Part shown: piece after piece, positions 11,207 to 55,680 of the stretch
Numbering within the stretch: the stretch's first letter is position 1
Layout of the letters: each line of letters starts with the position of its first letter
Origin: a bacterium
Lineage (GTDB): Bacteria > Auribacterota > Erginobacteria > Erginobacterales > DAOSXE01
Direction: 5' to 3'
DNA length: 64,000 nucleotides
NCBI GenBank assembly: GCA_035380285.1
Contig: DAOSXE010000008.1
Coordinates: forward strand, 17,217 to 81,216
Translations under genes and position numbers: made by a program
Notes under the pieces: generated by a model
What the model was told of the DNA's origin: nothing
The model's input: the letters and a program-made list of their open reading frames with translations, nothing else
Databases searched by the model: none

Positions 11207-11220
11207 AGTTCGCGGAGCCG

Positions 11221-28839: not shown

Positions 28840-28998
28840 TGCGACCTCCAAGGTGCCGGTTGGCTTGAGATTACAGGAAATCGCTGCGGTTGTCACGTTC
28901 CTCGCTTCGGGCCGCGTTCCCGGTCCGAGTTCAGGTGGACGAAGCCGGAGCGATATGGTTCAATACCCGTTATCCCGTACCTTGAGGACGACGAGACC

Positions 28999-30438: not shown

Positions 30439-30452
30439 CCCAGGAGAGCGGG

Positions 30453-34596: not shown

Positions 34597-36980
34597 ACCG
34601 AATCTGCGCCGCTCTTCTGGTCGCGGTGGTCGTGGTTGTGGGGGTCTACGGGGCCACCAACTACAACGCGCTCCTGAACTCCGACAGCTACACGTATTTA
34701 AGCTACGCCCGGAGCCTGGCCCGAGGAGGGGTCTTCGGCGATCCCGGGATCTATTCCCATTTCCGCTCCTACTGGCCCCGTGAACGCTCCAGCCTCATCT
34801 CCGGAAACCGCCACATGGATGGGGGAAGGATCTTCTACGACATCGATGTCGGTTATCCTCTTCTCCTGGCCCTGGCGATCCGCGGTTTCGGTCTGCCCGC
34901 CGTTTTCCTGGTCAACCCCCTCTTGCTCCTGGTCCTGGCCGTTTTTCTGGCGCTCCTCGTCCGGCGCACGGTGGGGCCGGGCGACCCCCGGGCCTGGCCG
35001 GCGGCGCTGGCGGGGCTGCTCGTTTTTCTCCTGCTTCCCCCCGGCCGGGTGTTGCTGTCGAGCATGAAGATCATGCGGGACATCCCCCCCCTGACCGCGC
35101 TGGTCGTCTCCTACTACCTGGTGGTCGTGTTCGCCCGGAGTGCGCGGCGGCGGTGGGGCGTTCTGCTGGGCGCGTCCGCCGCCTTCGGCGCGGCGGCCCT
35201 GATCCGATATACCTTCTGCATCTACGCGATCCCCTTCTGCGCTTACCTGGGCGTTTCCCTGGCGGCCCGGCGCGAGCCCTGGACCCGGTGGTTGGCGGCG
35301 GTTCTGCTGTTGGTCGTTCCGGCGCTGGTTCTGCTTTCGCCGGTGATCGTCAAGGATTTCGCCCGGTCCGGCGACCTCTTCGATACGGCCAAGGCACTCT
35401 GGAGCTACGTCGGCGCTTCGGATTCCCGGGGAGAAGTCTTTTCCCTCGACCACCTGGACGAAAGCGGCGCCTGGTATTTCGACTTTCTCCTTCGGGTGTA
35501 TACCCCGGTGGGGATTTTCTTCGTGTTGGCCGGCCTCGGGTTCGGTATCCGCCGCCGGGAAGTCTGGTCGCTGTTTCTCCCCCTCTTGATTCTGCACCTG
35601 GGGCTCTTCGCGATTTTCCGGTTCAAGCACTCGCGTTACCTGCTGCCGGTATACTGCATTTTCAGCGGTCTGGGCGCCTGGGGATGCCTGGAACTCTGCC
35701 GCGTTCTACCGTCCGCGCTGGGGCGGATCGAGCGCCGGGCGTTCGCGGTTCCGCTGCGCCTGGCGGCGGCGCTGGCCGCCGCCGGCGCCGCTGTTTATTT
35801 CCTGGCCGCCGGTTATTCCCCCGCGCTGGCCGCCCTCTCGCTGGCGGTCGTCCCCGCGGTCTTGATCCCGTACCCGTCTCAGGTCGCGCCCGGGATTTTA
35901 CTGGCGGGGTTGTCCGTCGCCCTGCTCGTTCAGGCCGTTCCCCCCGTTTTCGGGGGAAAACGTTTCACCATCTCCGACGCCCGGCGCCTGGGGGAAGCGT
36001 TCGACGCCCGGACCGCTCCCGGATCCCTGGTCGTCTGCGCCCGTTACCTGAAACAGAACATCGACGTATATTCCCACTGCGTGGCCCTCAACCCCAACCA
36101 GATCAGCAGCCCCTTCGGTTTGACTCCGGCCGAGGCGGTCCGTGTCCTCATTCGGGACGGCGTCGAAGTTTACGCCCTCGACAACAAGGGAAAACGCAAG
36201 GCGGCCCGGTTCGTCGAGCAGTTGCGGGATTATTTCGATCTGCGTCCGGTCTATCGCTGGCGTTCGGCCGACCTCAACATCGACTACCCCCAGTTTTCGG
36301 AGCGGGAGTTTCTCACCCTCTTCCGCGTGCTTCCCTGGAGCGCCGTTCCGGTGGTTCTTCAGCCCGGACCCGGAACCTCCGGCGCGGCGGTCTTCGACGC
36401 CCGCTACCCCTGGTGGACGGGAGACCGTGACTATATCCGCGCGACCGCCGACGGCGCCCCCCTGGAGGGGGAGGTTCTGGACGGATACAATTACCTGAAA
36501 TTCCCGTCCGCGGGTTCGGCGGTCGAGTTCGCCTCCGACCGGGGCCTGCCCGCTTTCCGTATTCTGCGCGGTTTCGAACCCGACGGCAGCATCTCCCTCC
36601 CGTTCGGTTCTTCTTCAGGGATCGAGGACTGGAAACTGCTCGACGACGGTTTTTTCCGGGAGCCGGGGGGAAAACAGTGGCGCACCTTGTCGGGGAAAGG
36701 GGCGGTCAGGATTCCCCCCTTCCGGGGCGAGGGCGCGACGGTTTCCCTGCGGGTCCGCCCCCGGGGGGGCGCGGCCCGTCTCGCGCTCGCGCTCGAAGGG
36801 AAGCCTCTGGAGACGGTGGATCTCGGTCCCGGGGATTGGCGCGAGCTGGTCGTTCCGGTTCCGCCCGCCACCGCCGAGGTCGGCGCGGCCCGTCTCGAAC
36901 TCGAAGTTCTTTCGGACGACGGCGCTCCGGCGCGGCTCGACCTCGGCGCCGTAAGGATGACCGCCGGGCGGGGGGAATGA
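34593..36980 (+). CDS. polytopic membrane protein, GT-C-like, with C-terminal soluble domain
   Basis: ATGA overlap with the upstream stop. MNRICAALLVAVVVVVGVYG..., multiple TM helices to about residue 470, then a soluble C-terminal region. The ORF from 34245 is an extension. Confidence 0.5.
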   Translation: MNRICAALLVAVVVVVGVYGATNYNALLNSDSYTYLSYARSLARGGVFGDPGIYSHFRSYWPRERSSLISGNRHMDGGRIFYDIDVGYPLLLALAIRGFGLPAVFLVNPLLLLVLAVFLALLVRRTVGPGDPRAWPAALAGLLVFLLLPPGRVLLSSMKIMRDIPPLTALVVSYYLVVVFARSARRRWGVLLGASAAFGAAALIRYTFCIYAIPFCAYLGVSLAARREPWTRWLAAVLLLVVPALVLLSPVIVKDFARSGDLFDTAKALWSYVGASDSRGEVFSLDHLDESGAWYFDFLLRVYTPVGIFFVLAGLGFGIRRREVWSLFLPLLILHLGLFAIFRFKHSRYLLPVYCIFSGLGAWGCLELCRVLPSALGRIERRAFAVPLRLAAALAAAGAAVYFLAAGYSPALAALSLAVVPAVLIPYPSQVAPGILLAGLSVALLVQAVPPVFGGKRFTISDARRLGEAFDARTAPGSLVVCARYLKQNIDVYSHCVALNPNQISSPFGLTPAEAVRVLIRDGVEVYALDNKGKRKAARFVEQLRDYFDLRPVYRWRSADLNIDYPQFSEREFLTLFRVLPWSAVPVVLQPGPGTSGAAVFDARYPWWTGDRDYIRATADGAPLEGEVLDGYNYLKFPSAGSAVEFASDRGLPAFRILRGFEPDGSISLPFGSSSGIEDWKLLDDGFFREPGGKQWRTLSGKGAVRIPPFRGEGATVSLRVRPRGGAARLALALEGKPLETVDLGPGDWRELVVPVPPATAEVGAARLELEVLSDDGAPARLDLGAVRMTAGRGE

Positions 36981-38206
36981 TCCGTTTCCCCGCCAACTTC
37001 CGGTTGTTGCTGGGATCGCTGCTGTTCGCGCTGCTTCTGGGAGAAGGAGCCGCCCGGCTTCTGACCCGGACCGACGAGGACGGGCAGGCATGGTTGGGTT
37101 CGTTTGCCCTGCTCCCGTACCGTTTCCCCGCCGCCACCACCCGGGCAGCGATCGAGCGATATCTCCGGCTTCGGGATCAGGCGTATATCGTGCGCGACCC
37201 CCAATTGGGCTGGGATTTGGCGCCGAACGCCGTCGGTGGCGACGGCCTCTACCGGACCAACGCCGCCGGGCTGCGCTCGCCGCCCCGCGAGTATGCCGCG
37301 CACCCTCCGCCGGGCGTCGTCCGCGTGGCGCTGTTCGGGGATTCCTTCACCCACGGGGACGAGGAACCCTGGGAGAAGTATTGGGGGGCGTTTCTGGAAG
37401 AAGAGCTGAACGCGAGCGGCCGCCGCGCCGAGGTTCTCAATTTCGGGGTTCCCGGGTACGGGGTGGGGCAGGCTTATCTCCGCTGGCTCCGGGACGGTAC
37501 CGCCTTTCATCCCGACATCGCGGTGTTCGGCTTTCAGCCCGAAAACATGCGCCGGACGGTCAACGTCTTCCGGCAACTGTACAGCCGGTCCACCGGGATG
37601 ATCTTCTCCAAGCCGCGGTTCCGCCTGACGTCATCCGGAACCTTGGAGGCGGTGAACCTTCCCATCCTCCCCCTGGAAGAGGTACCCGCCGCCCTGGAGC
37701 GGCTGCCCTCGATCGCTCTGGGCGCCTACGAATATTGGTACCGCCCGGACCATTACCGGGACTGCCGGCTCTACCGCAGCCGGCTGGCGGCCCTGATCGT
37801 TTCCGCTCTCTTCGCTCCGGGCGGCCGCCCCGGCGGCGACGACGACCACGGCCCCGGTCTCCTCCCCGAGGCCGAGGGCTCCGAAGGTTGGGAGGTCACC
37901 CGGACGCTCCTGGAGGCGTTCGCCGCTTCGGTCCGGGAGGAAGGGGCGGTCCCGGTGATAGTGCATATCCCCGACAAACCTTCCCTGAAGGAGATCGAGG
38001 CCGGGCGGCGCCCCCCGTACCTCGACCTGCTCGATGAACTCGCCGCCCGGGGCGTCCCGGTATGCGACCCCGCTGCCGAACTGGCCCGCGGGCACAAGTT
38101 CTACAAACACGCCCATCTTTCCAGCCGGGGCGGCAGGGCCCTCGCCCGGTTTCTGGCCCGGGAGTTGGAACGGTATTTAGATGCCGGGGAGGGCACGGCG
38201 CCGTGA
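36977..38206 (+). CDS. SGNH/GDSL-type hydrolase family protein with N-terminal TM anchor (paralog of 15222-16481)
   Basis: VRVALFGDSFTHGDEEPWEKYWGAFLEEELN...VLNFGVPGYGVGQAYLRW, about 50% identical by eye to the 15222-16481 product. ATGA overlap. Confidence 0.7.
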   Translation: MIRFPANFRLLLGSLLFALLLGEGAARLLTRTDEDGQAWLGSFALLPYRFPAATTRAAIERYLRLRDQAYIVRDPQLGWDLAPNAVGGDGLYRTNAAGLRSPPREYAAHPPPGVVRVALFGDSFTHGDEEPWEKYWGAFLEEELNASGRRAEVLNFGVPGYGVGQAYLRWLRDGTAFHPDIAVFGFQPENMRRTVNVFRQLYSRSTGMIFSKPRFRLTSSGTLEAVNLPILPLEEVPAALERLPSIALGAYEYWYRPDHYRDCRLYRSRLAALIVSALFAPGGRPGGDDDHGPGLLPEAEGSEGWEVTRTLLEAFAASVREEGAVPVIVHIPDKPSLKEIEAGRRPPYLDLLDELAARGVPVCDPAAELARGHKFYKHAHLSSRGGRALARFLARELERYLDAGEGTAP

Positions 38207-39522
38207 AACCCAGGGTGTGGGCGGGAATATTTTTTCTGGTCTCCGCCGCAGTCTACTCCGCCAATATGCGGGTGGTGGGAGCCGGCGACTGCTGGGCGGT
38301 GCGCTACGTTCCCGTCAGCATCCTGCGCGAGGGCAACCTCGACCTCAATGAATTTCCCGAAGTGAAGTTCCAGGTTTGGGACTGGACCCGGGGGAGGAAG
38401 TTCCGGATACCGCTTCAGCCGGTCGTGGCCGGGATCGCCGCGGTCCCCGTCTTCGCCGCCGCCGACCTGCTAGGGGTCCCCTTCACCCCGGTGAACATAG
38501 CCTACCTGGGGAAAGGTGCCGCCACACTTTGCAGCGCGGCGGCCGCCGCCTGCTGCCTGCTCCTCCTCTGGAGGCTCCTCCCCCCGGCGGGCGCCGTTCT
38601 CTATACCGCGGTCTTCGCCTTCGGGACCTGCGTCTGGTCGGTGAGTTCCCAGGACCTCTGGCAGCACGGTCTCAGCCACTTTCTGCTCACGGCCGCTCTC
38701 CTCTGCCTCTTCTCCGCGTCGGGACGGCGCTCGCGGGCCGGCCTCTCCGGGTTTTTCCTCGCCTGGGCCGCCGTCGTCAGGGGGATGAACATCCCCCTGG
38801 CCGCGTTTCTTTTCCTCTACCTCTGCCTGGAATACCGGGATCAGGTGCTTCCGTTCGTTCTCTGGTCTTTGCCCGCCTTGGGCTATACCCTGGCGTTCAA
38901 CTTCTATTATTTCGGCGCGCCCGGCAACGCCATCATCGGCTACGCCCTGGGAAAATTCAGTCCGGCCGGCGCGCCCGGGGCCCTGGCCGGCCTCTTGTTT
39001 TCGCCGGCCCGCGGGCTTCTCTTCTTCACCCCGGTCTTCGTTTTTTCTTTTTACGGGGCCTGGCGGGGTTGGAGCGCGCCTTCCCCCTTCCGGACGCTCT
39101 ACCGCTTTCTGGCGGCGGCGGCGGGGGCGTACGTCCTTTTTCTCTCCGCCTGGTTCATGTGGTGGGGGGGGCATTGCTACGGATACCGGATGCTGGTGGA
39201 CCTCGTCCCCATCCTGATCGTGCTCATGGTTCCGGCCTGGCGCCTTCTCTCCGGCTCGGCGGGGTTTCGCCTGCTCTTCGCCGTTCTTCTGGCCTGGTCC
39301 GTATTCCTGCAGGGCGCCGGAGCTCTGTATTACGGCGACCGCTGGAACGGCCGCCGGCATATCGACCGGCACCCGGAGCGGCTCTGGTGGGTGCGCGGCG
39401 GCCAGATCGACTATATGCTGGCCAAGGCCCGGGAACGGGGTTGGCGGGTGGAGCGCAGAGTCCTCCTCCCGGAGGGGCAGCGCGCCCGACCCGACCGGAT
39501 TCCGGAGGGAGCCGGACCGTGA
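38203..39522 (+). CDS. polytopic membrane protein of unknown function (possible GT-C/polymerase-like)
   Basis: GTGA overlap with the upstream stop; about 12 hydrophobic helices; WGGHCYGYRMLVDLVP. The ORF from 38062 is an extension. Confidence 0.5.
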   Translation: MKPRVWAGIFFLVSAAVYSANMRVVGAGDCWAVRYVPVSILREGNLDLNEFPEVKFQVWDWTRGRKFRIPLQPVVAGIAAVPVFAAADLLGVPFTPVNIAYLGKGAATLCSAAAAACCLLLLWRLLPPAGAVLYTAVFAFGTCVWSVSSQDLWQHGLSHFLLTAALLCLFSASGRRSRAGLSGFFLAWAAVVRGMNIPLAAFLFLYLCLEYRDQVLPFVLWSLPALGYTLAFNFYYFGAPGNAIIGYALGKFSPAGAPGALAGLLFSPARGLLFFTPVFVFSFYGAWRGWSAPSPFRTLYRFLAAAAGAYVLFLSAWFMWWGGHCYGYRMLVDLVPILIVLMVPAWRLLSGSAGFRLLFAVLLAWSVFLQGAGALYYGDRWNGRRHIDRHPERLWWVRGGQIDYMLAKARERGWRVERRVLLPEGQRARPDRIPEGAGP

Positions 39523-41654
39523 CCCGGGGCGCGCCCGTCAAGACGGCGCTGGCGCTGCTGCTGATCGCGGCCGCCGTGTTCGCCTGCTACCACCGCCTGC
39601 TGCTTCCCCGGGACGGAGGCTATCCCGGTTGGAACATCGTCAAATGGGGTTTGAAGGATTTTATGTATCCGCGGCTGATCTTCGATTCGGATGCCGTTCT
39701 TTCCGGATATTTCCCCCTCTGGAACCCCTATCAATACGGGGGCAGCCCCTGGTGCTCCAATTTCCAGGCCGGGCTGTACCAGCCGCTGAACTGGGCGGTC
39801 ATCCTGCTGGGGGGATATTCCGCCCTGGCCCTTCAATACCAGATGACGGTCCTTTTCCTGATCGGGGGCTGGGGGATGTTCGCCTGCGCCCGCGAGTTCG
39901 GTGTGGGCCGTGCCGGCGCCGCCGTCTCCGCCGTCTCGTTCGCCGGGGGCGGATTTTTTGTCGGCAACGGCACCTACTTCCCTCAGGTGAACACGCTGGT
40001 CCTCCTCCCGTTCTGTCTGCTCTTCTCGCGGCGGCTCGCCCGCCGATTTTCCTGGAGCGCCTTGAGTCTGGGAGCGGTTTCGTTCGCTCTCCTGGCGGCG
40101 GCGGGGTTTCCGACCATGTCTTTTTTCCTGGGAGCGACGGCCTGGCTGACCGGGTGGGCGTCGGGCGCCGCTCCCGGAAACGCCCCGCGGCCGGGACGGA
40201 TTTGGAGGCGGATGGCGCTGCTGGCGGCGGCGGCGGCGCTGCTGGCGGCGCCGCTTCTGTTCCCCGCGGCGGAAAGCTACTCCTGGCTGACCCGGCCCCA
40301 GCGGGTTTCCGATCCGGGCTCGGGTTGGGAGACGGTGGTGGCGGGAAAATCGCTGGGAGTCCCCAACTTCGTCAGTCTGGCCGTCCCCTTCGTCGCCAAC
40401 GCCGACATATCCGGGACCGGGCTCTGGATCGAATTCCGGAATTGTTTTTTGGGGCTGATCCCTCTCGTCTTCGCCGTCTATTACCTGGTCCGCGGCCGGG
40501 GCCGTGACCGGGCGGTGGTCTTCATCGTCGTGACGGCGGCGGCGGCTCTGGCGCTGGGGTTCACGCTGCCCCCCTACCGATGGCTTTACCGGCGCGTGTT
40601 GCCGCTGCGGCTGGTCAGCCATCCCGCCATGGATTTCCGCGCCCTCTTCCTCTTCTACCTCTCCCTGGCCTCGGGGATGGGGTTCGATCTCCACCGGCGC
40701 CGGAACCGGGCGGGGCCGTTTCTCCTGGTCTACCTGGGCATAGCGGCGGCCGCCGCCCTCGGCTTGGTCGTGATCATGCGCGGCCGGGACTCCGGTCTTC
40801 CGCCATCGGTCTGGACGGCTTTCGCCGTCACCATGCTGCTTCCGGTCCTGGGGTTGCTGAGGCGGGGACGTCTCCGGGACGGTCTTCTTCTGGGCGCCGC
40901 CGTCGCCGAGATCGCGTATTGGGGTAATTATAACTTCTCCACCATCGGCGACCGGGTCGGAACGGGGTTCTGGCTCAAGCGCCTGGATAAGGAAGCCCGG
41001 CGGGAACGGAGGGTGGACCGGACGGACAAGCTTGCCCGCCGCTCCGAGGCTCCGAGCCGGGACGCCCGCTCCATGTTTCACAAATACCGTTCCGACAGCG
41101 GGATCGACGGCACCGTTCTGCGGCCGTTCGCCGAGGTGATGCTGTCGCCGGCGGCGGAGGTTCTCGGCGAAGACTTCCGGATCCGGCCGCTGCGGCGGCT
41201 GGAGGTGCTGGAGGACGAAGCCGCGGTTCTGGAGCGGATCCGGGCGGGAGAAGATATCGCCGAAACCGGCTTGGCGGTCGGAAGCGATCTCCCCCCGGGG
41301 TTCGAGCCGGCGGCGGCGGAAGCGGACGCTGGTTTTGAGTCGCGGGTTGTGGTTTTTTCCCCTAACCTGATTGAATACGAGATCGAAGCCCGGGCCGAAA
41401 CTCCGGTTTTTTTCAACGAAATCTATTACCCCGGTTGGGAACTGGTTCGGGTCGGGGGAGGAGAGCGGCTGCCGCTCTTCCGGCTCAACCACGCCTTCCG
41501 GGGTTCGGTGCTTCCGGCGGGGTCTTATCGGCTGCGGATGGTTTTCCGCCCGCTGTGGTTTAAGATAGGCTTGGCCGCCGCCGCCGTGACGGCCGCGGGG
41601 CTGGTCTTGGGAGTAGCCGTGGAGACGAGGCGTCGGTATGCTGCGAAAAGTTAA
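39519..41654 (+). CDS. YfhO-family GT-C membrane glycosyltransferase
   Basis: GTG 39519 with ggaggga RBS. Polytopic N-terminus and C-terminal hallmark ...NEIYYPGWELVRVGGGERLPLFRLNHAFRGSVLPAGSYRLRMVFRP followed by a final TM helix, as in Bacillus YfhO proteins. The ORF from 38376 is an extension. Confidence 0.65.
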   Translation: MTRGAPVKTALALLLIAAAVFACYHRLLLPRDGGYPGWNIVKWGLKDFMYPRLIFDSDAVLSGYFPLWNPYQYGGSPWCSNFQAGLYQPLNWAVILLGGYSALALQYQMTVLFLIGGWGMFACAREFGVGRAGAAVSAVSFAGGGFFVGNGTYFPQVNTLVLLPFCLLFSRRLARRFSWSALSLGAVSFALLAAAGFPTMSFFLGATAWLTGWASGAAPGNAPRPGRIWRRMALLAAAAALLAAPLLFPAAESYSWLTRPQRVSDPGSGWETVVAGKSLGVPNFVSLAVPFVANADISGTGLWIEFRNCFLGLIPLVFAVYYLVRGRGRDRAVVFIVVTAAAALALGFTLPPYRWLYRRVLPLRLVSHPAMDFRALFLFYLSLASGMGFDLHRRRNRAGPFLLVYLGIAAAAALGLVVIMRGRDSGLPPSVWTAFAVTMLLPVLGLLRRGRLRDGLLLGAAVAEIAYWGNYNFSTIGDRVGTGFWLKRLDKEARRERRVDRTDKLARRSEAPSRDARSMFHKYRSDSGIDGTVLRPFAEVMLSPAAEVLGEDFRIRPLRRLEVLEDEAAVLERIRAGEDIAETGLAVGSDLPPGFEPAAAEADAGFESRVVVFSPNLIEYEIEARAETPVFFNEIYYPGWELVRVGGGERLPLFRLNHAFRGSVLPAGSYRLRMVFRPLWFKIGLAAAAVTAAGLVLGVAVETRRRYAAKS

Positions 41655-43758
41655 ACTTTACGTCCGCGCCCGCGGTGGGGAAATTCTGATGCTTCTGGGC
41701 ATCCCCCTTCTGGGCATCGTCCTGGCCCGCCCGCAGCTCGACGCGGCCCTGGCCGCGCGCACGGGAATCTTCTGCGCGGCCACTCTGCTCTGCCTCTTTC
41801 ATGCCTACGCCTTCAACGATTGGTCCCATTATCATTTCGACGTCTGCGACCGGCACAAGGGAGACCACCCTCTCTTGAAGAAGAGGATGACCCTGAACGA
41901 AACCCTGAGCTTCTCCATCCTCACCTTCGGGGCCGGTTTGATCGTCTATCTGGCGGCGCTGCCGATGCGGTCCTTGTTCATCTGCCTCAGCCTCGTTTTT
42001 CTCTGCATCCTCTACAGCAACCGCTTCACCCTTCTTAAAAACGTGCCCTTCGTGTCGACCTCCATTCACGTCGTTTCCGGTTCGCTCTTCTTCAATCTCG
42101 GTTGGTCGACGGTGAGAACTCCGTCGACCGCCAGCTGGCTCGCCGGTCTGTTCTTCGGGCTTCTGTACGGGGCCGGGCATCTCAGCCACGAATCGATCGA
42201 TTTCGAGGGCGACCGCCGGGCGCGGCTGCGGACGACCCCCGGCGTTTTCGGGTTGCGCCCGGTCTTCGCCGCCAGCGCCGTCGGCGTCACGCTGGCCTCG
42301 GCTCTCATGGCGGTCTTGGGGTTCGGCGGCGTCGTCTATACCTCCGCCGTCGCCGTGATCTTCCTGGCGGCGTGGCTCGCGTACATCCTCGCTTTCAGCC
42401 GGATCTGGCCCGGCGACCTCGGCTACGCCGACCTGTCCCGTTTCCGGACCGTCTACCGCAGGATCTACTCGGCGGCGGGGATCCTGGCCTTGGCGGCGGC
42501 CGTCGTCGGGGACGCGAAGGGGCCGGTTGTCCCCCGGCCCCGGGTCTGCATCGTCGGGCTCGACGCCCTCGATCCGGATCTGGTGGCGGCGTGGGGGGCT
42601 CAGGGGAAACTGCCGACGCTCTCGCGGTTGATCCGGGAAGGCGCCCGCGGGCGCCTCCGCTCGCTGCCCGGGCTCAAATCGCCGGTGATTTGGACTACGA
42701 TCGCCACCGGCCGGCTCCCCCGGGACCACGGTATCGTGGATTTCACCGTGCCCGGGAAGGACGGTGCCAGGGTCCCGGCCACCGCCGATTTCCGCCGGGT
42801 CAAGGCCCTCTGGGAAATGGCCACCGAATCCGGGCTCTCGTCCGGCTTCATCAACTGGTGGCCTTCCTTCCCGGCCGAGCGGGTCGACGGGTTCATGGTC
42901 TCCAATTATTTCCGCTATCTCTACGCCGATCTGGCCGCGCCCGGCGGCGTGGACCGGAAGCGCTTGGCCGGGCTCGAGGGGCTTTCCTGGCCGCCCGAAC
43001 TGGCGCTTTCGCTGGCCGATAAATGGCCCTCGGGCGGGGGGTTTCTCGACGAGATCGACGCGGAGACCGTCTTCGCGATCCCCTTTCCGGGAGGCTACGA
43101 TCCGGTCCGGGAACGGTCCTTTCCCGACGGGCGGGGGGTCTTTCGCTACGCCGTCGCGGGAGATGCGGCGGTGTTCGATCTGGCCCGGGATCTGGTTCGG
43201 GAACGCCCGGTCGATCTCTTCGCCGTTTACGTGGAAGGCATCGATGTTTTTTCCCACCTCTTCTGGGGATACGCACATCCCGACCGCTATCCGGTGAACG
43301 CGGACGAGGCCCGGGTGCTGGGCCCGCTGCTGGAAAAGTATTACCGGTATACCGACCGGCGACTGGGCGAACTCCTGGCGGCTCTTCCCCGGGAATGCCG
43401 GGTTCTGGTTCTCTCCGACCATGGCTATGGAGATGTCGGGGGGGGGCGTCATTTCCATCGGGAAGAAGGGTTTCTGGCCATGGCCGGCCCGGGCATCCAG
43501 GCCGGGACGCGGCTGGACTCCCCCGGCGTCGCCGACATCACTCCCACCGTTCTCTACCTGCTCGATCTTCCCGTCTCCCGCCAGATGCCGGGCCGCGTTC
43601 TCATGGAGGCTTTTACTCCCGCGTTCCGAGCGTCCCGTCCGGTTGAATTCAAAGATTCCTGGGAAGACGGTCCCCGGGAGCGGTCCCGGCCCGCGGTCGA
43701 TCCCCGCCTGCAGGAGGGGGCGATGGAGCGGCTCCGGGCTTTGGGCTATATCCAGTAA
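41638..43758 (+). CDS. fusion protein: UbiA-superfamily polyprenyl/phosphoribosyl transferase-like TM domain plus type I phosphodiesterase/nucleotide pyrophosphatase (AlkP superfamily) domain
   Basis: N-terminus: 8-9 TM helices with AYAFNDWSHYHFD and HESIDFEGD (Asp-rich UbiA-like motifs). C-terminus: CIVGLDALDPDLV...LKSPVIWTTIATGRLPRDHGIV (NPP catalytic-Thr region), ...LVLSDHGYGD. The antisense 741-aa ORF is rejected. Confidence 0.65.
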   Translation: MLRKVKLYVRARGGEILMLLGIPLLGIVLARPQLDAALAARTGIFCAATLLCLFHAYAFNDWSHYHFDVCDRHKGDHPLLKKRMTLNETLSFSILTFGAGLIVYLAALPMRSLFICLSLVFLCILYSNRFTLLKNVPFVSTSIHVVSGSLFFNLGWSTVRTPSTASWLAGLFFGLLYGAGHLSHESIDFEGDRRARLRTTPGVFGLRPVFAASAVGVTLASALMAVLGFGGVVYTSAVAVIFLAAWLAYILAFSRIWPGDLGYADLSRFRTVYRRIYSAAGILALAAAVVGDAKGPVVPRPRVCIVGLDALDPDLVAAWGAQGKLPTLSRLIREGARGRLRSLPGLKSPVIWTTIATGRLPRDHGIVDFTVPGKDGARVPATADFRRVKALWEMATESGLSSGFINWWPSFPAERVDGFMVSNYFRYLYADLAAPGGVDRKRLAGLEGLSWPPELALSLADKWPSGGGFLDEIDAETVFAIPFPGGYDPVRERSFPDGRGVFRYAVAGDAAVFDLARDLVRERPVDLFAVYVEGIDVFSHLFWGYAHPDRYPVNADEARVLGPLLEKYYRYTDRRLGELLAALPRECRVLVLSDHGYGDVGGGRHFHREEGFLAMAGPGIQAGTRLDSPGVADITPTVLYLLDLPVSRQMPGRVLMEAFTPAFRASRPVEFKDSWEDGPRERSRPAVDPRLQEGAMERLRALGYIQ

Positions 43759-45301
43759 CCGGCGCGTACAGAGCCCAGGCTCCATCCCGGAAAACGACTC
43801 TGGTAGTCCCGCTCCGGTCCGGGGCGGGCCCCAGCCAGAAAACGGGCCGCTTCAGCTCCCGGGATATCTCCTTCAGGACTTCCCCCCGGTCTCCGGAGCG
43901 GGCGCGGCCCAGCGTGCGCTCTCGGCGCCGGATTTCCCGGGGATCGGTTCCTATGGCGCGGAGAAAATCGATTCGGGCCAGGTAGGTGTCGCGTTCGGCC
44001 CGGGAGGGTACGTACCAGCCCCAGTCGGCCGCCACCACGGCGTCGCCCGGCAGCCCCTCCGCCGCTTTCCGGCAGACTGCCGCCGCTTCCGGTCGGAGCG
44101 GGTTCCGGTCTTTTTCCAGGCAGTACGCGGTCAGTCCCAGGGCGGTGGTGGGGAGACAGACGACGACGATCAGGAAAACGCCCCGCGCCGCGAACCCGCC
44201 CCTGATTCCGGAGCCGGCCATCAGGGCCAGGTGCACCGACAGCAGAAACGGCAGCTTGTATTCGTTGTACCCGCGCAGCCGCAGAAAGAGTACGGCCGCC
44301 GCCAGGACGGCCAGTCCGGCAGTAAAAAACCCCGCGTCCGGGCTCCGGTGCCTCCAGCCGCCGGCGAGCGCCAGCGCCAGAGCCGCCCAGAGCGGCAGCG
44401 GCAGCGCCAGCAGCATCCGCCATTGCGGCGCCCCCGGCGGCGCGAAGGCGAACCCGGAAACGCTTCCCGGCGCGAAGATCGAGTTCAGGTACGGCCAGAG
44501 GACGACGGCGGCGGCCGTCGCCGCCGCCGCGGGGACCGCCCACCCCGAAGCCCGTTTGCGGGAGAAGAGCAGCGTTCCGGCGCCGGCCGTTCCGGCATAG
44601 AGGAAGGCGGTCAGGAAAAGGACCGCGGCCGGGAACAGGTTGAGAAAGCCGATCAGGGCCAGTAGGGCCGCGCACCCCCCGAACCTCGCCGCGGAAGGTT
44701 TCCGGATCGTCGCCCGGAACAGGGCCAGACCCACCGCGTACCCGGCCAGTCCGGCCGGGAGGGAATTGGCGACCAGGAACTTGCTCATCATCATGCCCGC
44801 GGTGGTTTCCGCCGGCCCGGCGGAGACCGCGGGGAGGTAGCCCCAGATGCCTCCCGCTACGGCCGCGGCCAGAGCTTCCGACCCCCGCCGCGCCGCCGCT
44901 ATCCAGCCGAAGCCGTTGAGGCCCACGATCCCCAGCACCGCCGCCGCCGTTCCTCCGCTTCGACCGCCCCCGGCCGCCCGGGCTCCGGCGTACAGCGCGG
45001 CGCCGAGAACGGCGGCGGCCAGGGCCTGTCCCGCGGCCATGAGCGCTTCCGGGTCCGCTCCGGTTACGGACGCGGCGGCGACGAGGGCGTCGTACCCCCA
45101 GTAGTAAGCCAGTTTTTCCCCCGCCAGAAAGGGGTTCTCCGGCGGGATTCCCCCGCGCCGGACGGCCTCCACGATCCCCCGGTGGATCTGGGCGTCCGAG
45201 CGGGCCAGCAGGCTCGCGTTGCAGAGAAAGGGAAACGTCAGCGCCGCTCCCAGCAACCCCAGCGCGGCCGCCAGCAGCCTGTCTTTACAGCGTTCGGTCA
45301 T
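43649..45301 (-). CDS. polytopic membrane protein of unknown function (start trimmed to ATG 45301)
   Basis: About 12 hydrophobic helices with Ala/Gly-rich segments. The 3' P-rich tail overlaps the convergent gene by 110 nt, so the 3' end is uncertain. Confidence 0.45.
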   Translation of the reverse strand: MTERCKDRLLAAALGLLGAALTFPFLCNASLLARSDAQIHRGIVEAVRRGGIPPENPFLAGEKLAYYWGYDALVAAASVTGADPEALMAAGQALAAAVLGAALYAGARAAGGGRSGGTAAAVLGIVGLNGFGWIAAARRGSEALAAAVAGGIWGYLPAVSAGPAETTAGMMMSKFLVANSLPAGLAGYAVGLALFRATIRKPSAARFGGCAALLALIGFLNLFPAAVLFLTAFLYAGTAGAGTLLFSRKRASGWAVPAAAATAAAVVLWPYLNSIFAPGSVSGFAFAPPGAPQWRMLLALPLPLWAALALALAGGWRHRSPDAGFFTAGLAVLAAAVLFLRLRGYNEYKLPFLLSVHLALMAGSGIRGGFAARGVFLIVVVCLPTTALGLTAYCLEKDRNPLRPEAAAVCRKAAEGLPGDAVVAADWGWYVPSRAERDTYLARIDFLRAIGTDPREIRRRERTLGRARSGDRGEVLKEISRELKRPVFWLGPAPDRSGTTRVVFRDGAWALYAPVTGYSPKPGAAPSPPPAGGDRPRAGTAPGDRLPRNL

Positions 45302-45455
45302 GTTCCCGGTCGTCGATCCGAGGTGGAAGTGTCCGGTGATTTCGGGTATCCTCCCCACCGGTGATTATCACGGCGGACAATTCAATGTCATCAGTTATTC
45401 CCCCGCCCCGCCGGGTCGGACCGCCGGCGGGAGCCGTTACCCGGGACAGCGGCCG

Positions 45456-46388
45456 GTGAGGGTGCTGATTACGGGCGGCGCCGGATTTATCGGCAGCCAC
45501 CTCGCCGACGCTCTGCTCGAGAGCGGGGTGGAGGTGAGCGTTCTCGATAATTTCTCCTCCGGCCGCCCCGAATTTCTCGCCCGTGCCCGGGCGTATCCGG
45601 GGTTCCGGTTGTTCCGGGGTTCGATAGTGGAGCGGGAGGTGGTGGATGAAGCCCTGGGCGGGGTCGAATGCGTCTACCACTTCTGCGCCAACCCCGACAT
45701 CCGGGCGGGGCTGCAGGACCCCGGTATCGATTTCAGGGAAGAGACGCTGGCCACCTTTCGGCTCCTGGAGGCGATGCGCGCCCGCGGCTGTCGGAAGATG
45801 GTTTTCGCTTCCAGTTCGGTGGTGTACGGAGAAAGGCCGGTGCTGCCTACTCCCGAAGAGGCCCTGGGGCTGCCTATTTCATATTACGGCGCGGGCAAGG
45901 CGGCGGGCGAGGCCATGATCAGCGCGGCGGTCTGCTGTTCCGGTCTGGGAGCGGTTATCTTTCGTTTGGCCAACGTCGTCGGCCCCCGTCCTACTCACGG
46001 GGTGCTGTTCGATCTCCTGGCCCAGCTCCGCCTCGATCCCGCCCGCCTGCGCGTGCTCGGCGACGGCGCTCAGGAAAAATCGTATCTGCACGTCGACGAT
46101 TGCGTGCGGGGTGTGCTGGCCCTGGGAGACCCGGCTCCGGGGACCCTGGAAGTGTTCAATCTGGCCGGAGAGGGCACCGTTTCGGTGAAGCGGATTGTCG
46201 AACTGATCGCGGCCGTAACCGGTTTAAACCCCGAGGTGTCTTTCGGCGGCGGCCGGCAAGGTTGGCCCGGAGATGTCCCCCGCACCCATCTCGACGCCGC
46301 CCGGGCTCTCGGCCGCGGCTGGAAGGCTTCCCTGGATGCGGAAGCGGCGGTGCGCCGCGCCGCCGCCGAACTCTGGGAGGCGGGATGA
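45456..46388 (+). CDS. NAD-dependent epimerase/dehydratase (extended SDR; UDP-glucose 4-epimerase / dTDP-glucose 4,6-dehydratase-like)
   Basis: VLITGGAGFIGSHL (Rossmann GxxGxxG), YYGAGK (YxxxK). Start GTG 45456; the ORF from 45219 is an extension. Confidence 0.7.
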   Translation: MRVLITGGAGFIGSHLADALLESGVEVSVLDNFSSGRPEFLARARAYPGFRLFRGSIVEREVVDEALGGVECVYHFCANPDIRAGLQDPGIDFREETLATFRLLEAMRARGCRKMVFASSSVVYGERPVLPTPEEALGLPISYYGAGKAAGEAMISAAVCCSGLGAVIFRLANVVGPRPTHGVLFDLLAQLRLDPARLRVLGDGAQEKSYLHVDDCVRGVLALGDPAPGTLEVFNLAGEGTVSVKRIVELIAAVTGLNPEVSFGGGRQGWPGDVPRTHLDAARALGRGWKASLDAEAAVRRAAAELWEAG

Positions 46389-47110
46389 AGGAGATGCAGG
46401 CCGTGATTCTCTGCGGGGGCCTGGGAACGCGCTTGCGCCCCCTGACGGCCACGATTCCCAAAGCCCTGGTGGAAGTGGGCGGGCGCCCTTTTCTGGAGCA
46501 TCAGTTTCTGGAACTGCGGCGGCATTCGATCACCCGGATTCTGCTTCTGACCGGGTACCTGGGCGGGATGGTGGAGGATCGTTTCGGCGACGGAAGGGAG
46601 TGGGGGCTGGTGTTGAGCTATTCCCGGGAAGAGACGCCCCTGGGGACGGGAGGCGCTCTCCTTAGGGCGGCCCCGGGCCTGGAAGAGACGTTTTTTCTGA
46701 TCAACGGGGATACCTTTCTTCCCCTCGATTACCGCCGCTTGTCCCGGGCGTTTTCCGCGCGGTCCGGCGTCGGCCTGCTCAGCGTGGTCGCTTCCGCGGG
46801 GACCGGCCGGGTCCCCAATATCAGGCTGGGGGAGGCGGAGAAGGTGGTCGATTACCGCCGCCGGGGGCCGGCGGCGGAGGGTTTTACCCATGTCGACGCC
46901 GGCGTGGGAATATTCAGCCGGCGCCTGGTCGAGCATTTCCCCCCGGGCCCCGCCTTCGCTCTCGAAGAAACGGTATATCCGCTCCTGGCCGGCCGGGGGC
47001 TGCTGGGAAGTTTTTCCCCGGGCCACGATTTTTTCGATATCGGCACGCCGGAACGGCTGGCCGTTTTCGAAGACTACCTGCGTGAGAATGTCGGAGGGGC
47101 GGGGCGATGA
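46385..47110 (+). CDS. sugar-1-phosphate nucleotidyltransferase (NTP_transferase family)
   Basis: MQAVILCGGLGTRLRPLTATIPKALVEVGGRPFLEHQ (GxGTRL motif); ATGA overlap with the upstream stop. Confidence 0.75.
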   Translation: MKEMQAVILCGGLGTRLRPLTATIPKALVEVGGRPFLEHQFLELRRHSITRILLLTGYLGGMVEDRFGDGREWGLVLSYSREETPLGTGGALLRAAPGLEETFFLINGDTFLPLDYRRLSRAFSARSGVGLLSVVASAGTGRVPNIRLGEAEKVVDYRRRGPAAEGFTHVDAGVGIFSRRLVEHFPPGPAFALEETVYPLLAGRGLLGSFSPGHDFFDIGTPERLAVFEDYLRENVGGAGR

Positions 47111-55566: not shown

Positions 55567-55590
55567 GCGTCGAACCGGACGGGACGAATA

Positions 55591-55626
55591 AGGGGCGGCG
55601 GCCGCCGGGCCGCCGCCCCTTTTTTC
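55591..55626 (+). terminator. rho-independent terminator (aggggcggcggc-cgccgg-gccgccgcccct + ttttt)
   Basis: Perfect 12-bp GC stem, 6-nt loop, T5 tail, 25 nt after the stop. Confidence 0.7.
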
Positions 55627-55654
55627 CGCCCCGGCCCCCTCCGGCCGCATTTCG

Positions 55655-55670
55655 TGGTATAGTATAATCA
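55655..55670 (+). promoter_or_regulatory. candidate extended -10 promoter TGgTATAGTATAAT for the subtilase gene
   Basis: TGn + TATAGT/TATAAT directly upstream of the SD ggaggggg and ATG 55681. Confidence 0.45.
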
Positions 55671-55680
55671 GGAGGGGGAT

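Follow-up and report, generated by a model that had tools for sequence, protein, structure and literature searches.

A single chain that combines a UbiA-family transferase with a phosphatase has been described in Citrobacter youngae O1: In ORF15, a HAD-family phosphoribose phosphatase is fused to a UbiA-family polyprenyl-phosphate phosphoribosyltransferase, and this biochemically characterized protein feeds GT-C enzymes (Kelly et al., PNAS 2024, PMC11127046). Mycobacterium tuberculosis has the DPPR synthase Rv3806c and the phosphatase Rv3807c, the latter from a different structural family (PMC11127046). Rv3806c has a positive one-Mg2+ pocket, and its PRPP-binding residues include D77 (Mg2+), R90 (β-phosphate), Q135 (ribose O3), and K28 (5'-phosphate and lipid phosphate) (PMC10994848). 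In the ebo operon, EboC (UbiA family) and EboF (PF01663) belong to one pathway, and eukaryotic EboF homologues are devoid of targeting sequences (Yurchenko et al. 2016, PMC5133447). While ORF15 already embodies the single-chain transferase-phosphatase concept that the original prediction took to be undescribed, the specific UbiA-NPP architecture was indeed not found in the searchable literature.

The gene analyzed here lies in a stretch of 64,000 nucleotides, which as a whole is referred to as the window:

41638..43758, plus strand: fusion gene, 706 aa (UbiA domain, linker, and NPP/AlkP-type domain)

The open reading frame was found at exactly the coordinates originally given, and the Pfam search proposed as a check recovered both expected domains: PF01040 (UbiA) covers residues 24–250 (80.2 bits, cut-off 34.2) and PF01663 (Phosphodiest) residues 303–606 (98.3 bits, cut-off 23), so that the N-terminal part is a UbiA match and not a generic membrane anchor. 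A homolog of 690 aa, P0002, is 54% identical, has the same architecture, and is collinear across the domain junction. Because P0002 occurs on independent contigs (six, from ENA, JGI, and Logan samples) and an identical 706-aa protein is on record in GenBank, a frameshift or two-gene artefact is ruled out, and the single-chain fusion is confirmed as real; the window's own protein was moreover found on several JGI and NCBI contigs. Judged by conservation, translation indeed starts at the ATG at 41638, because the first 17 residues (MLRKVKLYVRARGGEIL) carry a Y-x3-R-x2-E segment that is found at the N-terminus of stand-alone UbiA homologs and also upstream of the called start of P0002. The JGI gene calls (689/690 aa) are 17 aa too short.

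The UbiA half comprises the following features:

41638..42507, plus strand: UbiA-fold domain, aa 1–290, nine TM helices, N-terminus cytoplasmic (PF01040; AlphaFold2 helices; positive-inside count; fold topology of the Rv3806c structure paper)
41815..41859, plus strand: first Asp-rich motif, non-canonical, N60-D61-W-S-H64-Y-H-F-D68-V-C-D71-R-H-K74 (clade conservation; alignment to Rv3806c N73/D77/D81/K87)
42190..42213, plus strand: second Asp-rich motif, intact, E185-S-I-D188-F-E-G-D192 (near-invariant in 142 clade members)
42424..42507, plus strand: helix 9, aa 263–290, Arg-rich cytoplasmic start and hydrophobic end (AlphaFold2 DSSP; stand-alone UbiA homologs end just past helix 9)

An AlphaFold2 model (mean pLDDT 89.5, pTM 0.78) consists of nine long helices, where eight to nine had been anticipated, followed by a low-confidence linker of about 11 residues and an alpha/beta domain. 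Both predicted Asp-rich motifs (NDWSHYHFD; DFEGD) are present, but the first, N60-D61-x2-H64-x3-D68, departs from the canonical form: His occupies the usual middle-Asp slot, a position that is G or D throughout the clade, and the Arg that precedes Pro78 in DGGGP synthase and Rv3806c is missing. For these two reasons, canonical prenyl-diphosphate binding is not assured. The half appears to be catalytically active, as judged from its retained clade-invariant polar residues: N60, D68, Y126, K134, E185, D188, and D192 are all kept and near-invariant across 142 clade members.

The remainder of the chain contains the phosphoesterase:

42508..42540, plus strand: short linker GDAKGPVVPRP, aa 291–301 (low pLDDT in the AlphaFold2 confidence profile)
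42541..43758, plus strand: NPP/alkaline-phosphatase-superfamily domain, aa 302–706, predicted extracytoplasmic (PF01663; Foldseek; family anchoring)
42562..42564, plus strand: D309, metal ligand on the first beta-strand (GLDALD), invariant in 31/31 family members
42679..42681, plus strand: S348, probable catalytic nucleophile (aligned with ENPP1 T256)
43243..43257, plus strand: D536-x3-H540, metal ligands (GIDVFSH), invariant in 31/31
43417..43422, plus strand: D594-H595, metal ligands (SDHG), found only in the S348 subgroup, fusion included

Its nearest solved folds in Foldseek are the NPP phosphodiesterases ENPP1/3, Xac NPP, autotaxin, and ENPP6. The segment designated as the catalytic-Thr region was correctly located, but the nucleophile is probably its first residue, Ser348, and not a Thr; this serine co-varies with the S-D594-H595-G motif in 8/8 cases. 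Since every metal ligand and S348 are kept, this half likewise appears catalytically active. The NPP asparagine (ENPP1 N277) corresponds to Phe369, counted by hand on the alignment, and for this reason mono- versus diesterase specificity is not readable from sequence.

With respect to topology, the predicted loops of the UbiA half hold about 20 Lys/Arg inside versus 2 outside, and in the published Rv3806c structure the last cytoplasmic loop of the fold lies between TM8 and TM9. A cleavable-type Sec signal peptide stands at the N-terminus of an unfused ortholog of the AlkP half, which is predicted to be soluble and secreted; all members of the AlkP-half family are anchored by TM helices, a lipobox, or a signal peptide, and some relatives carry five N-terminal TM helices. 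Based on the nine helices, the positive-inside rule, and the signal peptide of the unfused ortholog, the model and the sequence place the phosphoesterase domain outside the cytoplasm and the UbiA active site on the cytoplasmic side. With active sites on opposite membrane faces, transfer and dephosphorylation are therefore not one step, contrary to the one-step donor synthesis initially envisaged.

The distribution across genomes is narrow: The pairing of UbiA and AlkP occurs in about four lineages, fused in two, as adjacent genes in one, and not assigned to either form in one. Next to the nearest unfused UbiA protein, P0203 (48% identity), lies a separate protein orthologous to the AlkP half (44% identity over 409 aa, E = 1e-122), which is co-transcribed with a homolog of NAGPA-type phosphodiester glycosidases. 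In a third lineage, the two halves likewise lie side by side on one strand. By this Rosetta-stone argument from gene order, the two halves are functionally linked.

As originally stated, the fusion gene sits among GT-C glycosyltransferases:

30435..31397, plus strand: ArnC-like GT2 (polyprenyl-phosphate glycosyltransferase type), core operon (NCBIfam ArnC E = 6e-59, below model cut-off; in all lineages)
31492..36980, plus strand: two large GT-C-like membrane proteins, paralogs of 1034 and 795 aa, core operon (weak PMT_2 match; paralogy and conservation by tblastn)
36977..38206, plus strand: SGNH/AlgX-like protein, accessory-module partner (Pfam; syntenic in the P0002 and L048 lineages, absent from L045/L047)
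38266..39522, plus strand: 418-aa divergent GT39/PMT_2-type GT-C (homologs with PF13231 or GT39 annotation; 61% identical in the P0002 lineage)
39519..41654, plus strand: 711-aa YfhO-type GT-C directly upstream, overlapping the fusion gene by 17 nt (L045 homolog matches PF09586 YfhO; tblastn)
43649..45301, minus strand: DUF2298 GT-C-like membrane protein, window lineage only, overlapping the 3' end of the fusion gene by 110 nt (Pfam PF10060; gene calls)
45300..46388, plus strand: GalE-like NAD-dependent epimerase, directly after the fusion gene in the P0002 lineage (Pfam/NCBIfam; synteny)
46385..47110, plus strand: sugar-1-phosphate nucleotidyltransferase (Pfam/NCBIfam; synteny)

We propose an envelope glycan or glycolipid as the product of the core operon, which comprises a radical-SAM enzyme, the ArnC-like GT2, and several GT-C enzymes. 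As the ArnC-like GT2 is already present and the core GT-C operon exists in L045/L047 without the fusion, the comparison of loci indicates that the fusion belongs, with the SGNH protein, the GalE-like epimerase, and the sugar-1-phosphate nucleotidyltransferase, to an accessory module; a need of the GT-C enzymes for the fusion is not supported.

By sequence profiles, the closest relatives of the UbiA half are AfUbiA and the archaeal DGGGP synthase rather than DPPR synthase: The clade profile detects AfUbiA with E = 8e-20 and DGGGP synthase with 1e-18. Other clade members occur in fusions with, or next to, enzymes of isoprenoid chains (GGR-like, CruF, AttH/lipocalin) as well as PMT_2 GT-C and GT2 enzymes; at the window locus, no genes for GGR, GGGP synthase, or a prenyl-diphosphate synthase were found, and none of the curated UbiA subfamily models reaches threshold. 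These affinities, together with the intact acidic second motif typical of prenyl-diphosphate users, suggest a DGGGP-synthase-like prenyl-diphosphate transferase that acts on a phosphorylated acceptor rather than a PRPP-dependent phosphoribosyltransferase. Our preferred reading, held tentatively at a probability of roughly 40%, is a bifunctional enzyme working on both faces of the cytoplasmic membrane, with a prenyltransferase-like UbiA half and an outer phosphoesterase, accessory to the glycan/glycolipid operon. On the cytoplasmic face, toward which the UbiA-fold domain is oriented, its Mg2+/Asp site would couple a diphosphate-activated compound with another substrate, yielding a membrane-embedded isoprenoid lipid that still bears a phosphate. 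This lipid would be flipped, possibly via the TM1/TM9 cleft of the UbiA fold; no dedicated flippase adjoins the fusion gene, the sole candidate being a PF03706 protein 18 kb upstream. The NPP-type domain lies on the outer face about 11 residues past helix 9 and has a complete catalytic set, Ser348 and a two-metal site (D309, D594, H595; D536, H540, H605), with which it would cleave a phosphoester on the flipped lipid and unmask it for the neighboring GT-C enzymes as acceptor/primer or donor. Helix 9 would lead the chain out of the cytoplasm, a task that fell to a signal peptide in the secreted ancestor, and the fusion would keep the phosphoesterase at the lipid exit.

The DPPR-synthase-like chemistry initially proposed would instead make the UbiA half a polyprenyl-phosphate phosphoribosyltransferase that converts PRPP and polyprenyl-P to polyprenyl-P-ribose-5-P on the cytoplasmic face; after flipping, the outer domain would remove the 5-phosphate to give a polyprenyl-P-pentofuranose donor for GT-C enzymes, possibly epimerized by the adjacent GalE-like SDR. 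Within the UbiA family, only PPPRS/DPPRS are known to supply GT-C enzymes, the combination of a phosphatase-PPPRS chain and a GalE-like epimerase is established as a module (PMC11127046), and the window offers the GT-C context, the epimerase, and the accessory status; the repeated coupling of clade members to PMT_2 enzymes fits as well. With its epimerase beside a UbiA-phosphatase, the locus recalls the pentofuranose system that Kelly et al. described; this counts against our preferred reading and favors the present one. We still consider phosphoribosyl transfer unlikely: The NCBIfam DPPR-synthase model gives no match at E ≤ 0.1, and Rv3806c ranks only sixth against the clade profile (1.6e-8, N-terminal half only) and is undetected by the tight subclade profile. 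In the alignment, D77, R90, and Q135 are replaced by H64, H77, and C123, and K28 would correspond to M18 by spacing from the invariant R12; in favor of this reading, Y57 does match the 5'-phosphate ligand Y70, and N60, D68, K74, Y126, and K134 are generic diphosphate ligands. Moreover, the acidic second motif differs from the positive pocket of Rv3806c, neither DprE1/E2 nor a MATE/SMR flippase is found at the window locus, lipid-linked donors are already supplied by the ArnC-like GT2, and a PRPP route would leave the co-transcribed nucleotidyltransferase without a function.

More doubtful still is a phosphotransferase: With a lipid that the UbiA half makes or binds as donor, the outer domain would pass a phospho-substituent or sugar-phosphate on to the glycan under construction, like PF01663 GPI ethanolamine-phosphate transferases or EptA/LtaS. 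In EptA, LtaS, and PigN, a polytopic membrane domain precedes an extracytoplasmic domain of the AlkP superfamily whose nucleophile is Ser or Thr, the same layout as in the fusion and in the relatives with five TM helices; the closest folds are phosphodiesterases and not monoesterases, and the gene co-transcribed with the unfused ortholog encodes the NAGPA-type glycosidase homolog. That ortholog, however, is predicted to be soluble and secreted, unlike known lipid-dependent phosphotransferases, sequence similarity to the PigN or EptA membrane domains is absent, and an enzyme that would form a phospho-alcohol donor was not found. Least probable is a non-catalytic UbiA half that anchors or binds lipid for an exported phosphoesterase (e.g. 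a polyprenyl-diphosphate or nucleotide pyrophosphatase), or two halves in unrelated reactions: The non-canonical first motif and the PGAP name, merely 'alkaline phosphatase family protein', would fit, but this motif is common to all of the roughly 178 stand-alone proteins in the clade and therefore reflects no fusion-specific decay, the UbiA half with all its clade-invariant polar residues is better conserved than the AlkP half (61% versus 50%), and an anchor would not need the adjacency of the unfused genes.

Compared with known systems, the UbiA half finds its best profile matches in DGGGP synthase (PDB 6M31) and Archaeoglobus AfUbiA (PDB 4TQ3), with which it shares the second Asp-rich motif, Y126, and K134; the middle Asp and the Arg-Pro found in their first motif are absent from it, and it scores far under the family cut-off (32.6 bits versus 296), and is, unlike these archaeal enzymes, bacterial, encoded in a glycan locus, and joined to a C-terminal phosphoesterase. 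LtaS, EptA, and the GPI ethanolamine-phosphate transferases resemble the fusion in overall layout, in the side of the AlkP-type domain, and in the nucleophile and metal site, but they are transferases with known lipid donors whose membrane domains are not UbiA-fold enzymes, and LtaS and EptA belong to PF00884 instead of PF01663. The ebo operon is the only published pathway association of the two Pfam families; EboC and EboF are separate genes, the EboC model is not among the NCBIfam matches of the fusion protein, and no ebo-type neighbors (TatD hydrolase, sugar-phosphate cyclase, xylose-isomerase-like TIM barrel) were seen near the fusion gene. Rv3806c, too, shows the nine-TM-helix UbiA fold with the C-terminus outside, and with Rv3807c it likewise has a lipid-linked phosphorylated intermediate dephosphorylated later for use by GT-C enzymes; these two are separate proteins, however, and the fusion lacks counterparts of the PRPP-binding residues D77, R90, and Q135 (and K28 by spacing) while keeping the acidic second motif. 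Like ORF15, finally, the fusion is a single chain of UbiA-fold transferase and phosphatase in an accessory module that serves GT-C enzymes and includes a GalE-like SDR epimerase. The UbiA half of ORF15 is 31% identical to Rv3806c and has the canonical N-D-x2-D-x3-D motif, whereas that of the fusion shows no detectable likeness to PPPRS and carries His in place of D251/D77; the MATE flippase of the ORF15 system is missing at the fusion locus. The phosphatase is of the HAD family, N-terminal, and cytoplasmic in ORF15, but of the NPP/AlkP type, C-terminal, and by prediction extracytoplasmic in the fusion.

The open reading frame at 41638–43758 (+) encodes a single chain of 706 aa, in which Pfam detects two domains above their gathering scores: PF01040 (UbiA) at aa 24–250 (80.2 bits vs. 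34.2) and PF01663 (type I phosphodiesterase/nucleotide pyrophosphatase) at aa 303–606 (98.3 bits vs. 23). The domain search proposed together with the original prediction thus confirms a single-chain UbiA–PF01663 fusion, and the start codon chosen there is also correct: The N-terminal 17 residues carry Y-x3-R-x2-E, as do the N-termini of stand-alone homologs, the same segment is encoded 5′ of the database-called start of P0002 (the closest relative and a second fused lineage, 54% identity), and GenBank holds an identical 706-aa protein (HOO77114.1/HPQ65671.1), whose annotation, 'alkaline phosphatase family protein [bacterium]', names the phosphatase half alone. The JGI calls of the fusion (P0001 and P0002; 689 and 690 aa) begin 17 codons late (window 41638–41688), and the conserved N-terminal segment with R12 and E15 lies upstream of the called start. 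Neither of the two outcomes that might have undone the prediction, an N-terminal domain failing UbiA models or a frameshift artefact, occurred: We rejected a frameshift, chimera or assembly artefact because P0002 is collinear with the fusion through the junction, because P0002 occurs on six contigs from three data sources and the window protein on several more, and because of the 706-aa GenBank call; a generic transmembrane anchor was rejected on the grounds of Pfam score, fold and conserved polar residues. Full-length fusion gave no PDB matches by phmmer. At its 3′ end, the gene overlaps the convergent DUF2298 gene by 110 nt (window 43649–43758); the C-terminus LRALGYIQ is kept in orthologs, and the DUF2298 tail is, as judged by eye, rich in proline, glycine and alanine.

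In the AlphaFold2 model of the fusion (mean pLDDT 89.5, pTM 0.78), nine long helices lie ahead of the soluble domain. Of the loops of the UbiA fold, four are periplasmic and four cytoplasmic, the last cytoplasmic one being located between TM8 and TM9 (PMC10994848); consequently, the chain exits TM9 on the outside. This is accompanied by a clear charge bias, with ~20 Lys+Arg in the predicted cytoplasmic segments vs. 2 in the predicted periplasmic loops. The unfused AlkP ortholog at locus L008 has a GTG start codon and begins with a typical Sec signal peptide, (M)KTLNLLFSFLLLLSLVAPLRA followed by ESP, and all AlkP relatives examined are exported or anchored: Those of ~610 aa by about five N-terminal TM helices, the shorter ones by lipobox or signal-anchor leaders. 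By these four independent lines (helix count, charge count, signal peptide and the anchors of the relatives), the topology check named in the original prediction places the NPP domain outside the cytoplasm. The catalytic loops of the UbiA half are cytoplasmic and the two active sites thus face opposite sides of the membrane, so that the predicted one-step production of a dephosphorylated donor is impossible without flipping of the intermediate. As stand-alone UbiA homologs stop directly after helix 9, this helix has in the fusion taken the place of the signal peptide of the phosphoesterase, with a linker of ~11 residues. Small-residue patterns after helix 9 resemble signal-peptidase sites (G291-D-A293 before K, window 42508–42520; S-R-S before L in P0002), and cleavage there might set the external domain free once the protein is inserted.

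When aa 18–300 served as query in an exhaustive HMMER search of 1.84 billion representatives, 438 proteins were matched at E ≤ 1e-3, of which 178 reached E ≤ 1e-10; stand-alone proteins of ~290 aa account for nearly all of them. Neither the window protein nor its relatives reach curated NCBIfam cut-offs. Below threshold, the window protein is matched best by the models for archaeal-type 'prenyltransferase' PRK12884, DGGGP synthase, PRK12875 and heme O synthase; the DPPR-synthase model NF008977 (cut-off 234 bits) gives no match to it at E ≤ 0.1 and scores 28–32 bits for its nearest relatives. Although the DGGGP synthase equivalog models NF009521/NF009522 are likewise missed (32.6 bits vs. a cut-off of 296), this enzyme is the best or second-best solved-structure match of the UbiA half:

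PDB matches of the clade profile (41 sequences), with E-values
AfUbiA 4TQ3: 8e-20
DGGGP synthase 6M31: 1e-18
ApUbiA: 3e-10
Chlorophyll synthase: 5e-10
Rv3806c 8J8J: 1.6e-8, N-terminal half only

With a profile of five sequences from the subclade of the fusion, the PDB yields only 6M31 (1e-8) and 4TQ3 (1e-4), and Rv3806c goes undetected even at E ≤ 10. The first Asp-rich motif of the fusion, N60-D61-x2-H64-x3-D68-x2-D71-x2-K74, departs from the canonical N-D-x2-D-x3-D: The middle Asp is His in the window protein and Asn in P0002. Across 142 clade members, this position is Gly in 74 and Asp in 52. The second motif is present as D188-x3-D192 plus E185 and conserved in 136–140 of the 142, among which N60, D68, Y126, K134, E185, D188 and D192 are near-invariant. 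Since the middle position varies between Gly and Asp clade-wide and the other polar residues are near-invariant, the active site reads as clade-typical and not decayed. Of the Asp-rich motifs pointed out originally, the second is therefore intact, while the first carries His at its middle Asp.

The idea of a DPPR-synthase-like enzyme can be followed residue by residue. In Rv3806c, Mg2+ is bound by N73 and D77, the ribose by N73 and Q135, the 5′-phosphate by K28, Y70 and Y157, and the pyrophosphate by R22, K87, R90, Y138, K143 and K208, in a positive, one-Mg2+ pocket that differs from the acidic, two-Mg2+ pocket of canonical UbiA enzymes (PMC10994848); the PPPRS family conserves a loop-II motif, N247, D248, D251 and D255 in ORF15 (Kelly et al., PMC11127046).

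Rv3806c residues and window equivalents, as aligned by HMMER (clade profile vs. 8J8J)
Y70: Y57, conserved
N73: N60, conserved
D77 (ORF15 D251): H64, Asn in P0002, not conserved
D81: D68, conserved
K87: K74, conserved
R90: H77, not conserved
Q135: C123, not conserved
Y138: Y126, conserved

The counterpart of K28 would be M18, placed by its spacing from the invariant R12 and not an aligned position. Hence one residue of the Mg2+ ligand pair is kept (N60), the other being H64, and of the ribose and 5′-phosphate ligands Q135, K28 and Y70 only the last is matched (Y57). Where PPPRS enzymes have a positive one-Mg2+ pocket (R90, K143, K208), the window protein has H77 in place of R90 and retains the acidic second motif. 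Because the D251 equivalent is missing, ligands are mismatched and the acidic second motif is intact, PPPRS/DPPRS membership of the UbiA half is not supported by these comparisons, and the DPPR-synthase-like chemistry predicted at the outset loses its footing with the silent NCBIfam DPPR model and the lost equivalents of D77, R90 and Q135; a clade that uses PRPP by convergence stays conceivable. A PPPRS with corrected topology, whose product would be flipped and dephosphorylated outside, would suit the GT-C and epimerase context and has a precedent in ORF15, but with the residue and profile tests counting against it we regard it as unlikely.

For the C-terminal half, a Foldseek search of the model against the PDB returned ENPP1, ENPP3, Xanthomonas NPP, snake-venom PDE, autotaxin and ENPP6, each with a probability of 1.00 at 11–16% identity. 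In 31 aligned family members, D309, W352, T354, T357, G358, H364, D536, H540, S593, H605 and D633 are invariant, and T353 is found in 30. Eight of them have Ser at position 348, the other 23 Gly or Ala; the Ser348 members are exactly the 8 with S-D-H-G at 593–596, the remaining 23 having S-G-Y/H-G. Ser348, at the N-terminus of the helix ahead of T-G-x2-P-x2-H-G, aligns with the ENPP1 nucleophile T256 and is Ser, not Thr; the two-metal ligands D309, D536/H540, D594/H595 and H605 are kept in the fusion, P0002 and the L008 ortholog. Owing to this alignment and to the 8/8 co-variation with SDHG, Ser348 is the probable nucleophile of a complete two-metal site, which all three proteins share. Thr353 and Thr354 were rejected in this role as they are (near-)invariant even in members without the DHG ligands, whereas Ser348 co-varies; T354 is Asp in L012 (our own reading of the DNA), and Thr353 is still a formal candidate. 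The catalytic-Thr region of the original prediction was accordingly the right segment with the wrong residue. In ENPP1, the Asn N277 hydrogen-bonds the phosphoryl group. By our own residue count (HGIVDF vs. HGIIDN), its position is taken by Phe369 in the fusion and likewise in P0002, for which reason a mono-, diester or pyrophosphate class does not follow from the NPP precedent. That the external domain is a transferase of phospho groups seems quite unlikely to us.

The canonical AlkP residue set is kept only in the subgroup containing the fusion. P0013–P0047 belong to a large family of ~610-aa proteins, in which about five N-terminal TM helices precede an external AlkP-like domain. In these proteins, Gly occupies the nucleophile position and S-D-H-G is replaced by S-G-Y/H-G; they may be non-catalytic or use a different site. 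The island encodes a second AlkP-superfamily protein at 19234–22002 (+), with a PF00884 sulfatase-family domain (E = 6e-40) and a start that is uncertain because of an overlap of the ORF with the GT4 gene before it; two sulfatases are likewise found at the UbiA-clade locus L026.

We compared the arrangement of the two halves across lineages:

Arrangement of the halves, with UbiA identity to the window protein
Window lineage: fused
P0002 lineage, 61%: fused
MAG with loci L012/L029/L048, 55–57%: adjacent on the same strand, downstream of a YfhO-like gene; junction masked by 34 N
P0203 (nearest unfused UbiA), 48%: divergently adjacent to a stand-alone AlkP
L006 and L030, 44%: no AlkP nearby
More distant clade members, ≤ 33%: no AlkP nearby

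The AlkP next to P0203 is 44% identical to the window C-terminal half over 409 aa (E = 1e-122), and the locus also has NAGPA-like, GT2, DegT and epimerase genes. No UbiA was found in the neighbourhoods of the stand-alone AlkP relatives P0009 and P0018. The distribution is therefore narrow: Two lineages, those of the window and P0002, are proven fused among the collections searched, which makes the fusion rare, and L012, with its masked junction, is a possible but unproven third. From gene arrangement, the two halves are functionally linked, albeit in a narrow group only; that the UbiA half is only an anchor, or that two unrelated activities were joined, is very improbable. At L008 (7263–9844 (-)), three genes come after that of the unfused AlkP ortholog on its strand; they encode a PF09992 (NAGPA, phosphodiester glycosidase) homolog, a protein of 210 aa without Pfam match and an Lcl_C-domain protein, which hints at phosphodiester-linked sugar chemistry outside the cell.

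The wider UbiA clade has other partners. P0088 is fused to a GGR-like FAD enzyme and P0104 to CruF (carotenoid hydratase), while in P0075 (L026) helix 9 leads into a soluble C-terminal domain of ~315 aa, which should be periplasmic too; the P0075 gene has as neighbours those of a small GT2, a protein of 622 aa without Pfam match, a PMT_2 GT-C, a GGR-like reductase and the two sulfatases. The P0202 gene shares 4 nt with the end of a PMT_2 GT-C gene, and a GGR-like oxidoreductase comes next, with a PF03706 (MprF-type) membrane protein nearby, and P0054 (L023) is preceded by an AttH/lipocalin gene. Because these partners comprise isoprenoid-chain and GT-C/GT2 enzymes, fusions and gene neighbourhoods argue for a clade of prenyl-group transferases, the lipid products of which come together with GT-C enzymes.

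Taken together, the genes of the window form one large envelope-glycan island, in which the fusion is surrounded as follows:

Gene order around the fusion
28057–30438, co-directional run: B12-radical-SAM enzyme
30435–31397, co-directional run: ArnC-like GT2 (undecaprenyl-phosphate Ara4FN transferase model, E = 6e-59, below its cut-off)
31492–36980, co-directional run: two paralogous large GT-C-like proteins
After this pair, co-directional run: SGNH/AlgX-like protein
After SGNH: 418-aa protein, family contains PF13231/GT39 members
Between the 418-aa gene and the fusion, co-directional run: YfhO-type GT-C
3′ of the fusion, opposite strand: DUF2298 GT-C-like protein
After the DUF2298 gene: GalE-like epimerase, then sugar-1-P nucleotidyltransferase, then PurH

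This order is kept in the P0002 lineage. A 46%-GC organism (L045/L047) shares the core with 71% identity for the radical-SAM enzyme, 66% for the GT2 and 32–47% for both large proteins, the GT39-like protein and YfhO, and within 10 kb of this core SGNH, UbiA, AlkP, epimerase and nucleotidyltransferase are absent. As the core operon thus exists without it, the fusion belongs, by gene content, to an accessory module that the core GT-C machinery does not require, since this machinery already has a conventional GT2 route to polyprenyl-P-sugar donors; a need of the GT-C enzymes for the fusion product is not supported. Within the core operon (window 28057–41654, with four GT-C-like proteins), radical-SAM enzyme and GT2 are conserved far above the GT-C proteins between the window organism (66–67% GC) and L045/L047, which points to strong constraint on, or horizontal transfer of, a glycan system that is uncharacterised and would need a B12-radical-SAM enzyme. 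A PF03706 (MprF-type flippase-domain) membrane protein, a candidate flippase for lipid intermediates, is encoded at 23734–24699 (+); one also adjoins the P0202 UbiA/PMT_2/GGR operon (L011 9996–10946 (-)). At 46385–48627, purH overlaps the nucleotidyltransferase stop by 4 nt; it adjoins the module on the opposite strand in the P0002 lineage (L001) and lies ~4 kb from P0058, a 37%-identical UbiA member (L024), a proximity that probably reflects shared genome ancestry rather than function. Several large proteins with FG-GAP repeats, in part joined to SGNH, amidohydrolase/CBM or subtilase domains, and three SGNH/AlgX-like genes (112–915, 10261–13590, 16478–18760, 51556–57903) indicate an elaborate secreted or surface apparatus around the island.

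Two conserved and apparently competent catalytic domains are thus shown, from sequence and gene arrangement, to be functionally linked by fusion and adjacency. In the mechanism that we favour, with a probability of about 40%, the UbiA half would condense a diphosphate-activated substrate with a second substrate at the cytoplasmic face, yielding a phosphate-bearing isoprenoid lipid; the activated substrate would most probably be a prenyl diphosphate, as the affinity to DGGGPS/AfUbiA and an acidic second motif that is intact suggest. In the next steps, this lipid would be flipped to the outer face, where the tethered domain would remove or cleave a phosphoester with Ser348 and two metals, and the product would serve GT-C enzymes as acceptor, primer or donor. 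A possible but doubtful extension is an undescribed branch of envelope biogenesis, represented by the fusion and its unfused relatives, in which the product of a DGGGP-synthase-like UbiA clade is a phosphorylated isoprenoid (ether-type) lipid made inside, an NPP-type enzyme unmasks it outside, and ArnT/PMT/YfhO-type GT-C enzymes glycosylate it as membrane anchor or primer; if true, one polypeptide spanning both faces would follow a 'synthesise inside, deprotect outside' logic. Many bacterial surface glycans are assembled outside the cytoplasm from lipid-linked intermediates, whose making, moving and processing is only partly known, and even the site of mycobacterial DPR-to-DPA epimerisation is uncertain (PMC11127046). 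With a lipid transferase that faces the cytoplasm and a phosphoesterase that faces outward in one chain, the fusion is a natural experiment in which a UbiA product would be processed across the membrane from where it is made. It assigns a functional partner both to a UbiA clade about which little is understood (~178 representatives at 50% identity) and to a large family of membrane-anchored AlkP-like proteins, and it offers a compact one- or two-gene module that could be expressed and assayed. Should the UbiA half be PRPP-dependent after all, the pentofuranose pathway of Kelly et al. would extend to a third phosphatase family and to uncultured lineages.

Among known systems, the PF01040 and PF01663 families co-occur as separate genes in the ebo operon (PMC5133447). 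EboC/EboF identity was rejected, as no EboC model is among the NCBIfam matches at E ≤ 0.1, and the window ORFs scanned contain no TatD, sugar-phosphate-cyclase or xylose-isomerase-like genes of the ebo type. In C. youngae ORF15, HAD phosphoribose-phosphatase and PPPRS activities were shown biochemically (Kelly et al. 2024, PMC11127046), and in a candidate from Pseudomonas syringae the phosphatase domain is C-terminal (PMC11127046). Unlike the HAD-PRP/PPPRS fusion of the ORF15 type, the window protein has no HAD domain, with only PF01040 and PF01663 detected by Pfam. The three-component system of Kelly et al. 2024 for extracytoplasmic pentofuranosylation consists of PPPRS, a MATE/SMR flippase and a GT-C (GT136), with an optional SDR epimerase; the window has GT-C enzymes and an SDR epimerase, the UbiA half of the fusion lacks several PPPRS hallmarks, and no MATE/SMR flippase was found in the window. 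The wider idea, a UbiA transferase and a phosphatase in one chain that supplies GT-C enzymes, has already been published (ORF15; PMC11127046). The searchable literature yielded no single UbiA–PF01663 chain with its sites on opposite faces.
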